This document shows positions 698 through 45,106 of a stretch of 45,106 bases of DNA, piece by piece. Numbering within the stretch: the stretch's first letter is position 1; every line of letters starts with the position of its first letter. The notes below the pieces were generated by a model. That model was not told the origin of the DNA and made no database searches. It worked only from the letters and a program-made list of their open reading frames with translations. Location of the stretch: the IMG/VR virus record IMGVR_UViG_2541047951_000008, one strand, 5' to 3'. The translations under genes and the position numbers were made by a program. The stretch is from a virus (lineage: Duplodnaviria > Heunggongvirae > Uroviricota > Caudoviricetes).

Positions 698-1060
698 GGG
701 GCTGATTCTGGATTCGACGGGATTTGCGAAACCCAAGGTGCATGCCGAGGGGCGGTTGGCCTCGTAAAAAGCCGCAAAAAATAGTCGCAAACGACGAAAA
801 CTACGCTTTAGCAGCTTAATAACCTGCTTAGAGCCCTCTCTCCCTAGCCTCCGCTCTTAGGACGGGGATCAAGAGAGGTCAAACCCAAAAGAGATCGCGT
901 GGAAGCCCTGCCTGGGGTTGAAGCGTTAAAACTTAATCAGGCTAGTTTGTTAGTGGCGTGTCCGTCCGCAGCTGGCAAGCGAATGTAAAGACTGACTAAG
1001 CATGTAGTACCGAGGATGTAGGAATTTCGGACGCGGGTTCAACTCCCGCCAGCTCCACCA
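698..1060 (+). ncRNA. ssrA: tmRNA (transfer-messenger RNA, 363 nt)
   Basis: Begins GGGGCTGATTCTGGATTCGACGGG and ends GGTTCAACTCCCGCCAGCTCCACCA (tRNA-like acceptor/T-arm with CCA); internal tag reading frame at 787-819 GCAAACGACGAAAACTACGCTTTAGCAGCTTAA encodes ANDENYALAA-stop, the E. coli tag peptide. Confidence 0.95.
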
Positions 1061-1188
1061 ATCATGATTGGACGGTGTAAGGACAACACCAAGAAAAACA
1101 GGAAGTTAGCAGTCTCAGCAGGACACCGACCAGACGGTGAGGAGACAAAAAAGGATACGCAAAGGAGCCGCGGCTCCCGAGTGACTTG

Positions 1189-1216
1189 AAAGCCCACAGA
1201 TGTGGGCTTTTTTTCG
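1189..1216 (+). terminator. Rho-independent terminator-like hairpin downstream of ssrA
   Basis: AAAGCCCACA-GAT-TGTGGGCTTT stem-loop followed by a T-run (TTTTTTTCGTTT). Confidence 0.45.
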
Positions 1217-1952: not shown

Positions 1953-3995
1953 ATGAGTATTCTCAAGAAAGGAATTATGGAAGATCAACGTTTATTGGCA
2001 TCTGCAGCTCTTTTTCGTCAATTACATGAAAATAAGAAAGATATATACGATGTTTTAGCTCAGTTCCTATGTTCAACTATAGTCATACATCAGTTATGGG
2101 AGTTCGACGTAACTAAGTGCTCTCAGGAACTAAATTCTGACTATGGATTTGATATACCTGAAGCTGTAGTGAAATCATGTCTAAAAAACAGACTCAAGAA
2201 AATAGGTTTGTTGGAATTTAAAAATGGCAAATATTATGTTACTGAAAAATTTGATAGAAACAATAATCTAAAAGCAAGTTACGAGCAAGTAAAGGAAGAA
2301 CAAGACTATATAAAAAACTTGCTCATTCAATTCGTTAAGTCCTTTAGTAAAGAAGAACTTAATCTAGAGCAGATTGAAGAGCTATTATCAGATTTTTATT
2401 CATATTTTATTCATGACAGAAAGCAGAGTGAGAACTCCGTAGTTATCAGTCAGTTCATCATTCAGAATTCAAAAGACCCTCTGTTCACCGATAAGTTAAA
2501 CAAGGTTGAAGAAGGACTAATTCTTTACGGTGGGATCTGTTATAACTCAGACTTAGTGAATGCTGAGCCATGGAGGAATGATTTTCAAATAGTTCTTGAT
2601 ACGGAATTATTATTTGATGCTGTAGGATTAAATGGCGATATTCATTATCGTATGTTTGAAGAATTTCTATTATTAGTCAAGGGGTTACGAGACCGCTCAG
2701 GAAATAAATCAAAAATAGAATTAAAGTACTTTGAAGAAACACAAAGCGAAGTTGAAAGTTACTTTTATGCAGCAGAAAAGATTTTCGAGCGTAATCAACA
2801 TCCAGACCCATCTAAGACTGGAATGATCAATCTACTACAAAGCTGTTCTACAAAATCAGACATCACAATAAAAAAAATAGAGTTTTTTGAAAAACTAGGA
2901 AAAATGAAAATTTCTCTTGATGCTAACACTGATTATTACGATAAGCCGGAGTATAATATTGAAAGCACCTCTACACTTGATAAACTAAAAAGAGAATTCC
3001 CAGATTATGAATTGGATAAAATTGCTGATACTTTAAAAATTTTCACAAAGATAAATTACAAAAGAAAAGGAAGAAGCAATATAAAGTTAGAGCAAACTGG
3101 AGCCCTACTCATCACGGGTAAAAATATAACCAAATCCCTATCACATTACTTTTCTACTCAAGGAGAAAGAACAATACCATTCGCAGCCACTTTAGACTAT
3201 ATAACTGAGAGATTATGGTTTAAGTCTCATAAGGGGTTTGCTAATGGAGTGAAATTACCTACGACTTTTGATGTAGTTGCTAGAGCACAAGTTATTCTTT
3301 CTACACAGGTGGCAGCAAAAGTCGCTAATGTATACAAAGATATGAAAGGTTCTGTCGCGAGTGGAGCCATGTCAAAAGAGACTGCAGCCAACTTGGTTAT
3401 AGAGTTGAGAAGCAAAAATTTACAGCCGGAGGGATTTGTACCGGATCTGGTTGAGGATATCATGAGTTTTATGGATGAAGATGTAATAGAAAATGCACTT
3501 AGGACAAAATCTTTACTCGAAATTCGGGCTAAGCAAGGTATCGAAAGTGAAAAACAAGTTGAGGTTCTTCAGAAAAAACTTGAAGAAATAAGTGCAGACA
3601 AAAATGAACTTGTCATCAAATCGAATCTAGAAAAAGCTGCCACTATAACTGAAGCCCAGGCCTTGGTTAGAAATGTAATAATTCAGACACGAATCCGTGA
3701 GGGTGCAAAATTAAAAAGAAATGCCAAATTAAAATATAAACTCATTCGTTCTGTTTATTTTATGTTATTAGTAACCATACCTGTTTCATTTATTGCGTAT
3801 TTTAATGTCCCGTCGGACACGGTGGTTAGCGTCGCTTCATTAATATCAGGCGTTATTCCTTTGTTCTTCGTTGCTGCCATGTTTAAACCGATAGAAAAAT
3901 TAACTTCTCGGATTGTTATAACGGGGTTCAAAAGAAAAATCAAAAAAAGAAATGAAGTTCATTCTGTTGATAATCTTCTTCTCACTATGCATTAA
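1953..3995 (+). CDS. Hypothetical 680-aa protein: large soluble N-terminal region, coiled-coil-like segment, two predicted C-terminal transmembrane helices; AT-rich cargo gene
   Basis: Long ORF with GGAGG Shine-Dalgarno 6 nt upstream of ATG (cggaggggctgtATG); visibly AT-rich codon usage unlike flanking phage genes; C-terminus LIRSVYFMLLVTIPVSFIAYFNV ... VVSVASLISGVIPLFFVAAMF hydrophobic; no family recognised by eye. Confidence 0.6.
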   Translation: MSILKKGIMEDQRLLASAALFRQLHENKKDIYDVLAQFLCSTIVIHQLWEFDVTKCSQELNSDYGFDIPEAVVKSCLKNRLKKIGLLEFKNGKYYVTEKFDRNNNLKASYEQVKEEQDYIKNLLIQFVKSFSKEELNLEQIEELLSDFYSYFIHDRKQSENSVVISQFIIQNSKDPLFTDKLNKVEEGLILYGGICYNSDLVNAEPWRNDFQIVLDTELLFDAVGLNGDIHYRMFEEFLLLVKGLRDRSGNKSKIELKYFEETQSEVESYFYAAEKIFERNQHPDPSKTGMINLLQSCSTKSDITIKKIEFFEKLGKMKISLDANTDYYDKPEYNIESTSTLDKLKREFPDYELDKIADTLKIFTKINYKRKGRSNIKLEQTGALLITGKNITKSLSHYFSTQGERTIPFAATLDYITERLWFKSHKGFANGVKLPTTFDVVARAQVILSTQVAAKVANVYKDMKGSVASGAMSKETAANLVIELRSKNLQPEGFVPDLVEDIMSFMDEDVIENALRTKSLLEIRAKQGIESEKQVEVLQKKLEEISADKNELVIKSNLEKAATITEAQALVRNVIIQTRIREGAKLKRNAKLKYKLIRSVYFMLLVTIPVSFIAYFNVPSDTVVSVASLISGVIPLFFVAAMFKPIEKLTSRIVITGFKRKIKKRNEVHSVDNLLLTMH

Positions 3996-34039: not shown

Positions 34040-34362
34040 ACTTTCAGGCCCCTCTCATGTAACCAGTGGGCTGCACGCAGCCTGGCGTTCTCCTCACCGG
34101 CAAGCAGTGCGCGGATGATACCGACCGCTTCGCTGTCGTCGTCCTTCACTGCGGTATGAAGCGTTATCCCCCGGGCCACGCCACGCTTTATCGTGATGAC
34201 GCCTTTTTTCTCCAGTGCGCGAAGATGCTCCACCGCTGCATTCACCGAACGGTATCCCAGCATGGTTGCCACCTCCTGATTGGTTGGCGGAAAGCCACGC
34301 TCTTGCTGGTAAGAAATCAGCATATCCAGCACCTGCTGCTGGCATTGAGTTAACGTCGTCAT
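34036..34362 (-). CDS. Winged-helix DNA-binding protein (LexA N-terminal-domain-like)
   Basis: 108 aa; QQVLDMLISYQQERGFPPTNQEVATMLGYRSVNAAVEHLRALEKKGVI resembles the LexA DNA-binding domain. Confidence 0.45.
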   Translation of the reverse strand: MTTLTQCQQQVLDMLISYQQERGFPPTNQEVATMLGYRSVNAAVEHLRALEKKGVITIKRGVARGITLHTAVKDDDSEAVGIIRALLAGEENARLRAAHWLHERGLKV

Positions 34363-35012
34363 GCCGCCATCTCCCTGACAAGTTTTTCTGCCTGCTGGCG
34401 AACCTGCGCCAGAAACGCCTCACCACATGCCTCAAGTTCATCGCGCCCGATGTAGCTGATTGCCGGTCCCTTCCAGGTCTTGTCGAAAACAGCAATAGCA
34501 CCAGCGAAGAAAGCGCCTGTCGGCACCTGCTTCTCATCCTTCGGGATAAACCAGGCAGGCAGTTCAAAACCAATACGCCCGCGAATAAAAGCAATATGGT
34601 CCGCATCTTCCGGCCACCACACTTCGCTGGTGGCAGCTTTGATCAGGAAAACATAGCGCCCGCCCTTATCACGCATGGCACTGGCATGTTTCATGATGTA
34701 ACGCATGCCGGTGATGTATTGCCCCTCATGCTGACTGGCGCGGCTGTATGGGGGATTACCAAAGGCAGCACCTTTAAGCTCCGCAAGACGTTCTGACCAG
34801 TCATGCGCCAGCGCGTTGTCTTCCGCCGTGTAATACGCGGCACATTTGGCGTTATCACCGTCAGTGAACAGATCCAGAACAAACGGACCAAACAAGGTGT
34901 TAATTCCCCAGAAAATGTTGTCCGGCGTGCGCCACTGATCGCCCACTTCCTTCAGTTCATGGGCTGGTTTGTTCCGCAGTTCTACCAGCGCCTGGCAATA
35001 TTTATTACTCAT
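34359..35012 (-). CDS. Phage N6-adenine DNA methyltransferase (small Dam-like)
   Basis: 217 aa with NPPY catalytic motif (AAFGNPPYSRAS); nin-region position typical of lambdoid phage Dam-like MTases. Confidence 0.8.
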   Translation of the reverse strand: MSNKYCQALVELRNKPAHELKEVGDQWRTPDNIFWGINTLFGPFVLDLFTDGDNAKCAAYYTAEDNALAHDWSERLAELKGAAFGNPPYSRASQHEGQYITGMRYIMKHASAMRDKGGRYVFLIKAATSEVWWPEDADHIAFIRGRIGFELPAWFIPKDEKQVPTGAFFAGAIAVFDKTWKGPAISYIGRDELEACGEAFLAQVRQQAEKLVREMAA

Positions 35013-40988: not shown

Positions 40989-41207
40989 GTGGAGAAACAT
41001 ATGCTGAACCTCGATTGCGTTCCAATCTCAACTTATTGCAAAGAAACTGGCGAAACTCCTGAAGCAATAAACAAACGTGTACAGCGCGGTGTTTGGCGTG
41101 AAGGTGTTCAGGTTTTAAAGGTTGAAGGCGTTAAGGAGAGGTGGATTGATCTTAGTGAGGTTGCAAAATGGGCCAGACAAAACTGCTCAAACTACCGCGC
41201 GGCGTAA
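40989..41207 (+). CDS. Excisionase-like small DNA-binding protein
   Basis: 72-aa basic protein directly upstream of and overlapping int; assignment mainly by position and size. Confidence 0.45.
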   Translation: MEKHMLNLDCVPISTYCKETGETPEAINKRVQRGVWREGVQVLKVEGVKERWIDLSEVAKWARQNCSNYRAA

Positions 41208-42334
41208 CAATCAGGAAACACCGCCAGGGCGAAACGATCAATATAACTTTCACCTACAAAGGAGTTAAATGTCGTGAGCCTCTTTCCAATCTGGAAGTAA
41301 CACCAAAGAACATTAAATACGCCGAGCGCACACTCGGCGAAATTCATAATAAGATCGAAAGGGGAACATTCATTTATGCGGAATATTTTCCCCGTTCTGC
41401 TCGTTTGAAAATTTTTGGTAATGCTGCTGCAGGCAAAACGGTAAAAATGTACCTGGACGAATACCTTGAAATCTGCGAAACGAGAAAACTTTCACCCTCT
41501 ACGATTGGTGGTTATAAAAAATGCCGTAGTGCGTTAGCCTCACTCCACATTTGCCCTGCAAGTGAATTAACACCAGCAATCCTGAAAGCGTGGATTCAAA
41601 GCCAGAAAACGACCTTAAAAACAATTCGCAACCAGTTATCTTTCCTGCGGTCAGCACTTGATGAAGCCGTAACCGATGGGGTACTTCAAATTAACCCCGT
41701 ATCGTTGGTAACTGCTTCGCGCTACCAAAGTGATAAGTCAGAAGCAGAAAGCAGCTACGTGGTTGATCCGCTATCACCAGCAGAAGTTGATGCATTACTA
41801 ACAGCAGCCGGAAACAAACAATGGGAGAATCTGTTCCGGTTCGCTATACATACAGGCCTGCGTAGTTCTGAATTATGTGCCCTTCGATGGCGTGATATCG
41901 ACTTTGTTGGAAAAACTGCCCATGTCCAGAGCGCAAGTGTTGTCGGTGTTATCAAAGGAACAAAGACAAAAGCCGGTACTCGTAAAGTTGAACTGACAGA
42001 AGATGCAATGTTGGCGCTGATAAATCAGAAGCCATTTACATTCATGAAGGATGCTACTGTCTTTGAAGATCCAAAGACCAATAAGCCCTGGGCAAGTGCT
42101 GATGCAATCAGGAAAAAAGCATGGGTGCCAACATTGCGAAAAGCAGGTATTCGTTACAGAAATCCATATCAAACCAGGCATACATTCGCCACCCGCCATA
42201 TCAGCCGGGGAGCAAACCTGTTTTGGCTTGCAGCTCAAATGGGGCATAAAGGGCCGGAGATGCTTTTCAGGCACTATGGCTCATATCTGAAGGAATATGA
42301 TGGACAAACAAGCTTGAAGAAGATAACAATATAA
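41168..42334 (+). CDS. int: Tyrosine site-specific integrase
   Basis: 388 aa with N-terminal arm-binding-like region and C-terminal catalytic motifs (HTGLRSSELCALRWRDID ... RHTFATRHISRGANLFWLAAQMGH ... FRHYGSYL with catalytic Tyr). Confidence 0.9.
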   Translation: MGQTKLLKLPRGVTIRKHRQGETINITFTYKGVKCREPLSNLEVTPKNIKYAERTLGEIHNKIERGTFIYAEYFPRSARLKIFGNAAAGKTVKMYLDEYLEICETRKLSPSTIGGYKKCRSALASLHICPASELTPAILKAWIQSQKTTLKTIRNQLSFLRSALDEAVTDGVLQINPVSLVTASRYQSDKSEAESSYVVDPLSPAEVDALLTAAGNKQWENLFRFAIHTGLRSSELCALRWRDIDFVGKTAHVQSASVVGVIKGTKTKAGTRKVELTEDAMLALINQKPFTFMKDATVFEDPKTNKPWASADAIRKKAWVPTLRKAGIRYRNPYQTRHTFATRHISRGANLFWLAAQMGHKGPEMLFRHYGSYLKEYDGQTSLKKITI

Positions 42335-42351
42335 TCCAAGCATGAAACTAT

Positions 42352-42375
42352 TGGCCACAATTTGTGGCCATTTTA
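42352..42375 (+). terminator. Hairpin plus T-run immediately after int
   Basis: TGGCCAC-AATTT-GTGGCCA followed by TTTTA; lies inside the 5-prime extension of the track ORF for the next gene, arguing that gene starts at 42393. Confidence 0.4.
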
Positions 42376-42392
42376 CGGAGCAAGATAGAAAC

Positions 42393-44126
42393 ATGGCAAA
42401 TCAAATTACCAAACTAAAAAATATAAATGTTGTGAAGTTTCGCGGACTGAAAAATATAAACATCGAGTTTGGTTCTCGCCTAACTGTTATTTGTGGTAAA
42501 AATGGCACATCTAAATCCACAATTCTTGGCATTATCGCCCAAATATTTAGCTTTACAAAGGACTTTACCAAAAACCCTGAGACTGATTTAACACAATATA
42601 AAACATTAACAAATGGCAGCTTCAAGTCAGCTTTCAGCGAACATTTTAGGCTTTCAGAACAATTTGATGTTCCTGGTTCAATGGACGTCAAAATTAGTGT
42701 CTATGATGGTGCATCGAACAAACATCTTGAAAAACTAACATTAGGTTTATACAGCTACAGTGACAGAGATAAATCTAGGCCTGTAGTCAGGGGAAATGAT
42801 TCAATACCGGAAAAAAACCAAAGTAGAAACGTTACTCATCCTGTTATTTTTTTAAGCTTAGCACGACTTCTTCCTATTACATTAAGGACTGATTACTCAA
42901 CACGGGATGTTCAGTACATCAATGAAAATTCTGATGAAATCAGAATGATGAGTAACCAACTCTTACTAAAAAACAATGGAAGCTCAGTAACAGCAACAAA
43001 AGGTACTATCGATTCAATGGTTGTCCATGGTGACAATTATGATCACCAATCAGTATCTGTTGGTGAAGATAATGTTGGACAATTAATCCAGGCAATTTTT
43101 TCATTTAAAAGATTGAAGGAAACTTATTCTGATTATCATGGCGGAATATTGTTAATTGATGAAGCCGATGCAGGTCTTTTCCCTGCGGCACAGTTAGAGC
43201 TAATTAATATTCTAACTAAAGCAGCAAAACAATACGATCTGCAAATAATCATGACCTCGCACTCTCCATTAATAATAGAGGATATCTATAATCGTTCAAA
43301 ACAAGATAGTGATAGCTTTAAAACAATATATCTTACAGACACATATGGAGATATTAAAACAAAGAATAATCTTTCATGGACAGATATCCACGCTGATTTA
43401 CATGTTGAAACTGTAAAAATTAATGATGACATTTGTCTTCCAAAGGCAAATGTATATTTTGAAGACAAAGAAGGTTTCGACTTTTTCAAACAATTGATAA
43501 CAGATCGAAAAATAAATAAAATATTAAATCCATTAGGAAATATAAATATTAGCTGCTCTGCCATGCTTGACTTAATGGCAAGAAAAATACCAGAATTTAC
43601 AGCTAAAAGCTTGATCGTCTTAGACGGTGATGTTGTTCACGACAACAGTGCTAATGCAAAAAAAGCCAAAAAAGAAAAAAACTTATGTTTGCTTCCAAGC
43701 ACCTTACCTCCAGACCAAATGATTTTTGAGTTTTTATATAATTTACCACCTGATGATGCATATTGGGAAAATAAAAATAAATTTACAAAAGCTGTTTTTA
43801 TGAAAACAGCTAAAGACATAATTGCAACGCTAAAGATTGGTAACGCTCCGATTGATTTAAAAATCCTTATAGATAATTATAAAAAAGTTAACAAAAACCA
43901 TGGAGGGAGAGTTAGAAAACTGTTTAAAGATTTTGCACATACGACTCAATTTCAGGCCCAAGTCAAAGGAAGAGTTAAAGATAACCCATATCGATATTGG
44001 GTCGAGAAAAATCCTGTTCAATCGGATAGCTTCAAGAATGAACTAATAAAGAGTCTTAAAGTTATTATGATAAGTGGACATGGTGTCGATTCTGCTACCA
44101 TCTCATCATATCTGTCAGATAACTAA
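42393..44126 (+). CDS. OLD-family / GajA-like protein: N-terminal ABC ATPase with C-terminal Toprim-like domain; AT-rich cargo
   Basis: Walker A GKNGTSKST, Walker B ILLIDEADAGLFP, H-loop IIMTSHSPLI; C-terminal region with conserved Glu (VYFEDKEGFDF) and DxD (IVLDGDVV) as in Toprim domains of OLD/GajA nucleases; start taken at MANQITKLKNI. Confidence 0.7.
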   Translation: MANQITKLKNINVVKFRGLKNINIEFGSRLTVICGKNGTSKSTILGIIAQIFSFTKDFTKNPETDLTQYKTLTNGSFKSAFSEHFRLSEQFDVPGSMDVKISVYDGASNKHLEKLTLGLYSYSDRDKSRPVVRGNDSIPEKNQSRNVTHPVIFLSLARLLPITLRTDYSTRDVQYINENSDEIRMMSNQLLLKNNGSSVTATKGTIDSMVVHGDNYDHQSVSVGEDNVGQLIQAIFSFKRLKETYSDYHGGILLIDEADAGLFPAAQLELINILTKAAKQYDLQIIMTSHSPLIIEDIYNRSKQDSDSFKTIYLTDTYGDIKTKNNLSWTDIHADLHVETVKINDDICLPKANVYFEDKEGFDFFKQLITDRKINKILNPLGNINISCSAMLDLMARKIPEFTAKSLIVLDGDVVHDNSANAKKAKKEKNLCLLPSTLPPDQMIFEFLYNLPPDDAYWENKNKFTKAVFMKTAKDIIATLKIGNAPIDLKILIDNYKKVNKNHGGRVRKLFKDFAHTTQFQAQVKGRVKDNPYRYWVEKNPVQSDSFKNELIKSLKVIMISGHGVDSATISSYLSDN

Positions 44127-44136
44127 TTGATTAAAA

Positions 44137-44172
44137 AAGGGTTTTATGTGATGGCCATAAAGCCCTTTTTTT
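44137..44172 (+). terminator. Rho-independent terminator after the ATPase gene
   Basis: AAGGGTTTTATG-loop-CATAAAGCCCTT (one G-U pair) followed by TTTTTTT. Confidence 0.5.
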
Positions 44173-44206
44173 GATATACTTTAGATCTGACATTTAGAGG
44201 TATCAT

Positions 44207-45106
44207 ATGCGTTTTAACACCCCACTTCGCTATCCTGGCGGTAAAGGCAAGCTTGCAAATTTCATGCTTCGGATTATTGAAGAAAATAATCTTTCGCCTA
44301 TACATTATGCCGAACCATATGCTGGGGGTGCTGGTTTAGCATTGAAACTGTTACATCTAAATGCAGCTGAAAAAATCATCCTTAATGATATTAATATTTC
44401 TGTTTATGCTTTTTGGCACAGTGTATTAAATCATGCAGATCAATTATGTTCTTTAATTGAAAGAACAGAAGTTACAATGGATGAATGGTTTAGGCAGAAA
44501 GATATAATTAATAATCCTAAAGACCATGATCTTTTAACAATTGGTTTCTCAACCTTTTTTCTCAATAGAACAAATCGTTCTGGAATATTAAAAGGTGGAG
44601 TAATTGGCGGTAAAAATCAAGAAGGGAAATGGAAGCTTGACGCTCGCTATAATAAGAGTGATTTGATTTCTCGAATCCATAAAATATCAGAAAATCGTCA
44701 CAGAATAGATTTATATAACATGGATGCAATTGATTTCATTAAAAAAATAGTTACTCAATTGCCACAAAACTCATTAACATATTTGGATCCACCTTATTAC
44801 ATAAAAGGTAAAGGTTTATATATCAACCATTATGATCATGATGATCATGTTAGGGTTGCAAAAGTCGTACAGAATAATATTAAAACACCTTGGATTGTTT
44901 CTTACGATAACACTCCTGAGATCCAAGCTATGTATAAGACATCATCATTAGTATATGGAATAAACTACAGTGCTCAAGATCGGTACAAAGGATCTGAGGT
45001 AATGTTCTTCAGTGAACGATTGAAAATCTTTAAAACAGATGATCCAACTAAGGTAAAAGCGCCTGTATTTAAAAGAGGATGTGTTGACGACCACATCCAG
45101 ACATAA
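44207..45106 (+). CDS. Dam-family (D12 / alpha-class) N6-adenine DNA methyltransferase
   Basis: N-terminal RYPGGKGK and motif I EPYAGGAG, C-terminal motif IV YLDPPYY (order I...IV as in Dam/T4 Dam); GAGG RBS; AT-rich; ORF ends at the window edge. Confidence 0.85.
   Translation: MRFNTPLRYPGGKGKLANFMLRIIEENNLSPIHYAEPYAGGAGLALKLLHLNAAEKIILNDINISVYAFWHSVLNHADQLCSLIERTEVTMDEWFRQKDIINNPKDHDLLTIGFSTFFLNRTNRSGILKGGVIGGKNQEGKWKLDARYNKSDLISRIHKISENRHRIDLYNMDAIDFIKKIVTQLPQNSLTYLDPPYYIKGKGLYINHYDHDDHVRVAKVVQNNIKTPWIVSYDNTPEIQAMYKTSSLVYGINYSAQDRYKGSEVMFFSERLKIFKTDDPTKVKAPVFKRGCVDDHIQT

Follow-up and report, generated by a model that had tools for sequence, protein, structure and literature searches.

The last two genes of the 45,106-nt stretch of prophage DNA analysed here (hereafter the window) form a cassette of an ABC ATPase carrying a Toprim-like domain and an N6-adenine DNA methyltransferase (MTase), which we take, at a probability of roughly 0.5, to be a modification-dependent, restriction-like defence module, that is, a variant of PD-lambda-5 that is conceptually close to MADS. 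This reading is built on the catalytic motifs of both genes, their linkage across several phyla, the family of the MTase and the exchange of effectors beside it, and the position of the cassette in a prophage cargo slot.

Gene structure and motifs of the cassette

The first-pass annotation, which was made from the letters alone, had described an ATPase of about 577 aa with the motifs GKNGTSKST, LLIDEADAGLFP, MTSHSPLI, FEDKEGFDF and LDGDVV, and its open reading frames and all five motifs were found in the translation (Table 1). From the first ATG, the ATPase frame spans 42342-44126 on the plus strand and encodes 594 aa, while the RefSeq start is the second ATG at 42393, and the longer form is probably not in use. 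Pfam matches to AAA_15 (3.8e-15) and AAA_21 (4.1e-12) identified an ABC-type ATPase, and the N-terminal arrangement of Walker A, Walker B and H-loop, a feature of the OLD family, is present. Among 37 homologues down to 50% identity, residues G35, K36, N37, G38, T39, K41 and S42, as well as L254, I255, D256, E257, D259 to Q267, H290, S291 and P292, are invariant. The E357-D358 pair and the D411/D413 DxD are invariant in the same 37 proteins and also in distant relatives at 23-29% identity; overall, ATPase and Toprim-like residues stay invariant down to 23% identity.

AF2 models predict a strand followed by a helix around Toprim-like motif 1, and a beta1-alpha-beta2-alpha-beta3(DxD)-alpha-beta4 order for the whole region, which fits the Toprim definition quoted in PMC12065111. 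The profile searches gave no match for such a domain: Pfam recognized no Toprim in 23 C-terminal domains searched, no PADLOC model matched either of two segments of the 594-aa frame, residues 107-253 and the C-terminal residues 331-594, neither of two profiles gave proof in a PDB HMM search, and hhalign against P2 Old found nothing. The proposed Toprim signature therefore stands as a motif and not as a profile or significant fold match, the structural matches being weak; together, motif, topology and these weak structural hits make a C-terminal Toprim domain plausible. The helical domain that ends the protein is missing in shorter relatives of ~500 aa, and sequence searches of Pfam, PADLOC and the PDB gave no match to it.

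The downstream gene had been called an alpha-class Dam-like MTase, and this was confirmed by a match to PF02086 (D12-class N6-adenine MTases, 1.8e-19) and by motif I preceding motif IV, the alpha-class order. EPYAGGAG and DPPY are invariant in seven diverse family members, and the intact SAM-binding motif I and motif IV predict a catalytically competent enzyme; the recognition region is also conserved among the family members compared. Against the PADLOC model PD-Lambda-5_B (PDLC04018) the MTase scored 412.6 bits over its full length (E 2e-124, residues 1-282 on profile positions 1-283 of 291), as strong a match as the 403 bits reached by the methylase from a genuine PD-lambda-5 locus; its identity to the enzyme encoded at a true locus of that system is 51%. 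The score on PADLOC MTase_II PDLC03358 was 357 bits, and the corresponding REBASE entry is probably M.Eco1886ORF14565P, a putative Type II enzyme. A second adenine MTase is encoded elsewhere in the same prophage.

The two genes are separated by an 80-bp spacer holding a hairpin (dG -18 kcal/mol, z -4.9, 0 of 200 shuffles as stable), and since this hairpin is strong and flanked by A6 and T7, the earlier statement that the MTase follows a terminator is fair. Divergent loci carry equivalent -10 or extended -10 elements in the same spacer (TGGTATAAT, TGTGTTATAAT, TGGTATTAT). Upstream of the ATPase, the inverted repeat forms an 8-bp perfect stem by RNA folding (region z -2.2), includes two copies of TGGCCA and probably serves either to terminate int or as an operator. 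TGGCCA recurs only locally, upstream of the MTase, and is not enriched across the whole window (13 sites observed vs. 16.6 expected).

Table 1. Features of the cassette and its border, in window coordinates
Feature	Position	Strand	Description
Tyrosine integrase int	41168..42334	+	Inner border of cargo slot
Inverted repeat TTGGCCACAATTTGTGGCCA then TTTT	42351..42371	+	Between int stop and ATPase start
ATPase effector gene	42393..44126	+	577-aa ABC ATPase, Toprim-like domain, helical C-terminal domain
Walker A / P-loop GKNGTSKST	42495..42521	+	Residues 35-43
Walker B and D-loop LLIDEADAGLFP	43149..43184	+	Residues 253-264
H-loop TSHSP	43254-43268	+	3' of Walker B/D-loop
Toprim-like motif 1 NVYFED	43449..43466	+	E357-D358 closing strand beta-1
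Toprim-like motif 2 LDGDV	43620..43634	+	DxD (D411, D413) right behind strand beta-3
C-terminal helical domain	43713..44123	+	Residues 441-577; invariant K512 at 43926-43928
Intergenic hairpin	44130..44175	.	A6 and T7 on its flanks; resembles bidirectional intrinsic terminator
MTase promoter-like element	44152..44180	+	TGGCCA, 17 nt, TATACT, TG upstream
MTase RBS GAGG	44197-44200	+	
MTase (modification) gene	44207..45106	+	299-aa alpha-class D12 N6-adenine DNA methyltransferase, PD-Lambda-5_B family
MTase motif I EPYAGGAG	44312-44335	+	
MTase motif IV DPPY	44786-44797	+	

Linkage of the pair and its prophage setting

Of 80 genomic loci that encode an ATPase homologue (42-89% identity), 78 also have an MTase of the same family, and the remaining two are broken off at a contig end, so all 78 informative loci carry it. 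The loci span Gamma- and Betaproteobacteria, Geobacter, Mycobacterium, Bacteroidota, Listeria and Acidobacteria, and the MTase usually lies 40-130 bp 3' of the ATPase on the same strand. The pair is a conserved functional unit, and its linkage is obligate. It follows cI in Pseudomonas prophages, and sits between Q and the holin gene in a Yersinia prophage; further copies are located at the end of an e14-like prophage and in an ICE of E. coli, so these are different slots of unrelated elements. Altogether, 1109 ATPase homologue proteins were found, and the system occurs in several phyla. Among complete E. coli genomes, about 1.6% have the near-identical pair, JJ1886 and other ST131 clade C strains among them, and a few more diverged copies exist in addition.

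Seen from the MTase, the effector is modular. On 31 viral contigs encoding this MTase family, an effector adjoins almost every informative copy, namely the ATPase-Toprim protein in 13 cases, PD-Lambda-5_A in 14 and both in two; three-gene hybrids (ATPase-Toprim, PD-Lambda-5_A, MTase) were found at six loci in all, one of them in Edaphovirga cremea, and the partner types are intermixed in the MTase tree. These results indicate that the MTase is a dedicated hub and not an orphan; essentially always, the family has an ATPase-Toprim or PD-Lambda-5_A neighbour.

The cassette occupies the interval between int and attR at the end of a lambdoid E. coli prophage integrated at ssrA. The integrase (Arm-DNA-bind_2, 5e-23; Phage_integrase, 3.4e-16) is shared by 412 E. 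coli genomes in which the cargo downstream differs, and in E. coli O103:H2 CEC12044 the same slot holds AbiLi/AbiLii; the int-attR slot is a defence hotspot. A GC content of 0.32-0.38 over 42-45 kb vs. 0.44-0.61 in most of the prophage bears out the earlier description of AT-rich, horizontally acquired cargo, and the pair is horizontally mobile. In JJ1886, attR (the ssrA 3'-end repeat) begins 73 bp past the MTase stop and is followed by the host gene glaH, and the int-attR interval holds no open reading frame besides the ATPase and the MTase. It had been noted, correctly, that the window ends at the MTase stop, and suggested that further partners might lie beyond; since host genes follow, the cassette has no further partner.

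Proposed mechanism and alternative readings

We propose that the cassette acts as a mobile anti-phage (anti-invader) unit in the int-attR cargo slot. The MTase, predicted to be an active N6-adenine enzyme, would mark resident DNA, and the effector would combine an ABC ATPase head, a Toprim-like metal-dependent nuclease (E357/D358, D411-x-D413) and a helical tail (K512), so that unmarked DNA would be attacked by the effector or would switch it on. Such a module would follow a restriction-modification logic in which an OLD-like ATP-dependent nuclease replaces the classical restriction enzyme, and the terminator together with the MTase's own promoter may allow modification to be expressed independently of the effector. 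Nuclease activity, methylation dependence and the defence phenotype are what we infer for the cassette from these features. A bolder version, offered as a tentative proposal, is that the ATPase-Toprim protein could represent a mechanistically new kind of restriction endonuclease, an OLD-like ATP-dependent Toprim nuclease. The m6A mark set by a PD-lambda-5-type methylase would gate its attack on DNA, and this methylase family would serve as a universal self-marking hub for unrelated effectors (ParB/HEPN, ATPase-Toprim, or both).

Abortive infection is the main rival and a serious one, because the recently characterised ATPase-Toprim effectors P2 Old and PARIS are reported to be tRNA-cleaving or abortive, and we regard it as possible, though less likely than the restriction-like module. 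An OLD/PARIS/Septu-like sensor-effector would then cleave tRNA or other RNA, with the methylase as regulator, antitoxin or guarded component; phage anti-restriction proteins or SAM depletion, for example, would block methylation and thereby unleash the nuclease. Consistently, the models closest to the ATPase head are PtuA, AriA, GajA and NsnB, abstracts report tRNA cleavage for P2 Old, PARIS and also Septu/retron Eco7, AbiL resides in the same slot of another strain, the recognition region of the MTase is conserved, different effectors can replace one another or be stacked on a single MTase, and PD-lambda-5 was labelled 'RM+Abi' by its own authors (PMC9519451). However, PARIS, Old, HEC-04 and IbfA function without a methylase, so abortive infection leaves the 78/78 linkage to an intact MTase unexplained, and the C-terminal domain has no similarity to AriB, DUF4435, RloB or DUF4276.

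Classical restriction-modification systems can act as addiction modules, and the inseparability of effector and MTase, as well as the constant residence of the pair on mobile elements (prophages, ICE, viral contigs), would also suit a selfish, toxin-antitoxin-like stabiliser that kills after loss as methylation dilutes, defence being secondary or absent. Against this improbable reading, which is compatible with the restriction-like module rather than exclusive of it, validated defence systems alternate in the slots of the pair, and the sister system PD-lambda-5 protects strongly against phage from a plasmid (PMC9519451). Two independent genes, an orphan prophage MTase shielding phage DNA from host restriction next to an unrelated superinfection-exclusion or housekeeping ATPase, are already disfavoured and appear very improbable: the terminator-like hairpin and separate promoter between the genes, the second adenine MTase of the prophage and the frequent orphan status and transcriptional silence of prophage MTases (Forde et al.) would agree with them, but the two genes stay together in different phyla and on different kinds of element, mostly no more than about 40 bp apart, and the MTase family is essentially never without one of its two effector neighbours.

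If the pair is a working defence, it would be one more widespread, currently unnamed system, in which the PD-lambda-5 methylase would be a shared modification module used, singly or in combination, by at least two effectors that are unrelated. The pair would further offer a direct route to ask whether DNA methylation controls OLD-like ATPase-Toprim nucleases, and would thereby connect two branches of immunity, abortive infection and restriction-modification. The cassette could also influence phage-therapy host range and the transformation of clinical E. coli, Klebsiella, Enterobacter and Pseudomonas strains. To judge by its matches to PADLOC models, an orphan methylase is probably all that current defence finders would see at the locus.

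Comparison with known systems

No named system matched the ATPase-MTase pair among the PADLOC v2 models and the literature searched, and the literature search found no named ATPase-Toprim plus Dam system. The Old, GajA, PtuA and AriA models matched the ATPase head only; the GajA and Old models cover short stretches, e.g., residues 262-311 and 25-70, and the PDB 6p74 match is limited to residues 8-49. With no full-length profile match, membership of the OLD/GajA sequence families was ruled out, which corrects the OLD/GajA-like label first given. A Gabija-like GajB UvrD helicase partner, whose absence had already been pointed out, was ruled out by the order MTase, attR and host glaH, and no helicase was found in 16 annotated loci examined gene by gene; nor was a retron RT or ncRNA found near the cassette. 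P2 Old, Gabija GajA, the retron I-B ATPase-Toprim protein and the single-gene HEC-04/IbfA, all of them fused ABC ATPase-Toprim effectors, do not need a methylase, whereas the cassette has one. The HEC-04 model scored 57.7 bits, with its best stretch at residues 25-70 only, and some distant ~500-aa relatives match it across residues 3-410; HEC-04/IbfA membership was rejected because no full-length match was obtained and the gene is never stand-alone in the 78 informative loci. Menshen NsnB and PDC-M38A were rejected because the ATPase head alone matches.

PARIS (AriA/AriB) and AbiL (AbiLi/AbiLii), typically found on prophages or satellites, likewise bring together an ABC ATPase and a Toprim nuclease, as proposed for the cassette, but as two separate proteins and without a methylase, while the cassette has a fused protein plus an MTase. 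Membership of PARIS/AbiL was rejected, since the AriA match (61 bits), like that of the AriAB models, is restricted to the ATPase part and the partner gene is the MTase. Type II restriction-modification systems also place an alpha-class D12 m6A methylase beside a nuclease (putative in the cassette); their partner is a PD-(D/E)XK, HNH or GIY-YIG enzyme, in contrast to the predicted ATP-dependent ABC ATPase-Toprim protein.

MADS is a multi-gene system that phages escape through methylation. It shares with the cassette the conceptual kit of a DNA methylase, an ABC ATPase and a Toprim-fold nuclease (putative in the cassette), distributed over separate proteins in MADS, whereas the cassette has two genes with the ATPase fused to the Toprim-like domain. 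Mad4 is described as a DUF4276 Toprim in PMC12065111. The C-terminal domain had no DUF4276 or mad4 match and MAD3 (NCBIfam NF047739) scored 31.1 bits on the ATPase vs. a cut-off of 420; with two genes only, MADS membership was rejected.

PD-lambda-5 (Vassallo et al. 2022, PMC9519451) includes a methylase, has been validated by experiment as a defence of broad range, and needed a delta-mrr host for cloning. It is not identical with the cassette, as the effectors are unrelated: the 577-aa ATPase protein stands where PD-lambda-5 has a ~500-aa ParB/HEPN protein. None of the 25 PD-Lambda-5_A models was among the best 25 PADLOC matches listed for the ATPase, and BLASTP against a true PD-Lambda-5_A gave E 2.5, i.e., no detectable similarity; without such a match, the two-component PD-lambda-5 rule would not be expected to call the cassette. 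The initial view that the pair is not a named system therefore holds for the pair as a whole and not for its MTase half, which belongs to PD-lambda-5, so the module is an effector-swapped variant rather than wholly unrecognised. The two systems share the methyltransferase family and a layout of two genes, effector then MTase, with a ~70-80 bp spacer as prophage cargo, and natural three-gene hybrids connect them. The cassette thus looks like an unnamed relative or variant of PD-lambda-5, with the same methylase and a different effector.

Domain architecture of the two cassette genes

In the first-pass annotation, gene 1 was regarded as an OLD/GajA-type ATPase-Toprim protein. Its ABC ATPase head was evident, as Pfam returned AAA_15, AAA_21, AAA_23 and SMC_N, and the Walker A, Walker B plus D-loop, signature-like SVGEDN and H-loop motifs were unchanged throughout 37 homologues. 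The PADLOC/NCBIfam models of PtuA, AriA, GajA, NsnB, HEC-04 and MAD3 matched at 50–70 bits in the ATPase head only, PDB sequence matches fell on the P-loops of PtuA, retron ATPases, OLD and Rad50, and PHROGs labelled the ATPase 'unknown function'. With matches so confined, sequence membership in the OLD or GajA families was rejected; hhalign against P2 Old also gave no match.

No match to the C-terminal 270 residues was found in Pfam, PADLOC or PDB sequences, even when 23 family members were scanned. Modelled alone, this region gave a confident fold (pLDDT 90) ordered as beta1 (NVYFE357-D358), helix, beta2, helices, beta3 (IVLD411-G-D413), helix, beta4 and a helical domain, in agreement with the Toprim hallmark of a Glu near beta-1 and a DxD after beta-3 (PMC12065111). 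An exhaustive profile search collected 455 relatives, many of them ~500-aa ABC ATPases sharing only the C-terminal core, and E357, D358, D411, D413, P435, P440 and K512 were invariant in the alignment at 23–29% identity. For some ~500-aa relatives, alignments to HEC-04 and to PADLOC's 'ATPase-Toprim' model of retron type I-B spanned the whole protein; gene 1 itself aligned with the latter from Walker B through beta-4. Because the structural searches were weak (no significant Foldseek match; top probability 0.35, Thermus OLD), the domain is termed no more firmly than Toprim-like, which it probably is. The ATPase motifs of the earlier assignment thus stand and its Toprim-like signature is plausible, while a sequence affiliation with OLD or GajA does not hold.

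Gene 2 matched the Pfam D12 N6-adenine MTase family, and its motif I (EPYAGGAG) and motif IV (DPPY), unchanged in 7 diverse members, follow the alpha-class order proposed earlier. The Dam-like label, however, does not extend to GATC Dam orthology, since the Dam equivalog score was 56.6 bits against a cut-off of 114.85. The key match was PADLOC PD-Lambda-5_B, the methylase of the anti-phage system PD-lambda-5, over the full length (E 2e-124, 412.6 bits). Based on the matching 900-nt gene in strain JJ1886, gene 2 is probably M.Eco1886ORF14565P, listed in REBASE as Type II with no specificity given and also listed as an ST131 clade C accessory MTase. The window MTase carries a C-terminal tail of ~15 residues (KAPVFKRGCVDDHIQT) absent from other aligned family members.

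The cassette as prophage cargo

The window is E. coli DNA; in the cassette region its identity is 100% with strain MS21324 and 99.9% with JJ1886, an ST131 strain. It starts within smpB, after which come the tmRNA gene ssrA and a lambdoid prophage up to the integrase. The ssrA 3′ end with about 150 bp downstream is repeated, at 91% identity, 73 bp past the MTase stop in JJ1886. This repeat is attR, and together with ssrA at the left it defines everything between about 1.06 kb and the end of the window as one ssrA-integrated element, with int at the end distant from ssrA. Further partner genes had been suspected past 45106, but in JJ1886 attR is followed by the host gene glaH, so the prophage cargo ends with the cassette, to which no further gene belongs. 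The AT-richness initially noted for both genes was confirmed (GC 0.32–0.38 vs. about 0.45–0.6 in the prophage).

Just inside the attL (ssrA) end, another AT-rich block (GC 0.32–0.35) holds a 680-aa ORF, which had zero Pfam or PADLOC matches and may be further cargo at the opposite prophage end. A second adenine methylase, located by 96.7% identity to a JJ1886 gene annotated 'phage N-6-adenine-methyltransferase', lies in the early region, so the phage has a methylase besides the cassette MTase.

The same integrase occurs in 412 E. coli genomes, only about 85 of which carry the cassette. The same slot holds AbiLi and AbiLii in O103:H2 CEC12044, a lone 259-aa gene of no assigned function in R13, and three unrelated genes in IHE3034, none with a PADLOC match. 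In this trio HATPase_c_2 was matched weakly, below threshold (E 9e-5), and RefSeq annotates one gene as STAS-like. The int–attR slot of this prophage family is thus a cargo hotspot, where the cassette alternates with a known defence system.

Coordinates of features in the window and in compared loci (L-numbers; L001 is JJ1886)
Feature	Coordinates	Remark
ssrA	window 698-1060	
ssrA 3′ end, repeated unit	window 1028-1213	
680-aa ORF	window 1953-3995 (+)	
Early-region methylase	window about 34359-35012 (-)	L001 2815-3468
Integrase	window 41168-42334	prophage end, 5′ of cassette
Gene 1 (ATPase)	window 42342-44126 (ORF)	RefSeq start 42393, 577 aa
TGGCCA, two copies	window 42352-42370	hairpin 5′ of ATPase
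TGGCCA	window 44152-44157	upstream of methylase
Gene 2 (MTase)	window 44207-45106	299 aa; stop at exact window edge
MTase C-terminal tail	window 45062-45103	
Terminator-like hairpin	window 45077-45098 (-)	adjoins attR
attR	L001 15179-15364	
AbiLi + AbiLii	L176 6388-8339	CEC12044
Three unrelated genes	L175 6165-8035	IHE3034
259-aa gene	L177 6215-6994	R13
ATPase-Toprim + PD-Lambda-5_A + one PD-Lambda-5_B	L015 2237-6683; L090 5001-8995; L105 795-4882; L106 2953-6423; L022 5001-9502; L045 2050-6641	varied gene orders
ParB-like and 338-aa proteins	L099 1789-3929	viral contig

Gene pairing and the intergenic spacer

In several elements unrelated to one another, the ATPase at about 50% identity was followed by the same MTase family: in prophages of Pseudomonas aeruginosa (3′ of a cI-like repressor), in one Yersinia prophage (with Q and holin on either side), in an E. 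coli ICE and at an e14-like prophage end. Scanning one genome per species yielded 80 ATPase loci across Proteobacteria, Geobacter, Mycobacterium, Bacteroidota, Listeria and Acidobacteria. The MTase family was present in 78 of them and the other two met a contig edge directly after the ATPase, which bears out the pairing first proposed. In the reverse scan, the 31 viral-contig loci with an MTase family member carried an ATPase-Toprim relative (13; 4 close, 9 divergent), the ParB/HEPN effector PD-Lambda-5_A (14), both (2), or a ParB-like gene plus one of no assigned function (1), and one was cut. All three genes also lay together in 4 genomic loci, and partner types were mixed among the branches of a neighbour-joining MTase tree. 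These results indicated that the MTase is a hub on which two unrelated effectors are swapped or stacked.

One three-gene locus, L015, comprises PD-lambda-5 in full, with an A protein that shares 68% identity with the prototype, and then the ATPase. On viral contig L099, a 370-aa ParB-like protein and then a 338-aa protein without PADLOC match lie upstream of a family MTase; the former is matched by two models in their N-terminal regions, PDC-M38A (715 positions) over half its length and PD-Lambda-5_A over part of it. This points to a third way of arranging effectors and to ParB-ATPase fusions among the members of PDC-M38A.

Between gene 1 and gene 2 is a strong hairpin flanked by A and T runs, with a promoter-like element overlapping its 3′ half, and comparable -10 or extended -10 elements were seen in this spacer of divergent loci. 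The spacer is only about 44 bp in most Betaproteobacterial loci, suggesting a single operon there. The palindrome TGGCCA, at or near the -35 of the promoter-like element, recurred in 14 of 76 distinct spacers, chiefly long ones (L002, L010, L016, L017, L095, L096 and others), with no enrichment over the whole window; it could be an operator, a methylase target or chance.

Function and relation to known systems

We consider, with a probability of about 0.85, that the two genes form one defence unit. Three points argue for a modification-dependent defence module: a methylase with intact catalytic motifs is obligately coupled to a predicted ATP-dependent nuclease, a validated sister system uses this methylase, and the pair lies in a hotspot. 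Two independent genes would be very improbable, and a selfish addiction role of the pair is unlikely. As to how self is told from non-self, we favour a restriction-like action on unmarked DNA, at even odds. The main alternative, for which the chances appear distinctly lower, is an OLD/PARIS-like abortive effector under methylase regulation, which two observations support: the tRNA cleavage reported for related ATPase-Toprim proteins and the conservation of the MTase recognition region while it serves unrelated effectors.

The PADLOC v2 models do not include the pair as a system and no description of it was found in the literature searched, so the earlier view of an unnamed pairing holds to that extent, except that its MTase half is PD-Lambda-5_B. 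PD-lambda-5 was isolated functionally from ECOR7 and annotated as 'ParB/HEPN, methyltransferase' (Vassallo et al., PMC9519451). For a genuine PD-lambda-5 locus, carried by a P2-like prophage in NCTC9008, the scores were 558 bits for the A protein and 403 bits for the B protein; the window MTase was 51% identical to this B protein, while no similarity of the window ATPase to the A protein was detected. Therefore, the pair shares the MTase half with PD-lambda-5 but has an effector unrelated to PD-Lambda-5_A, and its kit of methylase, ABC ATPase and Toprim resembles that of MADS.
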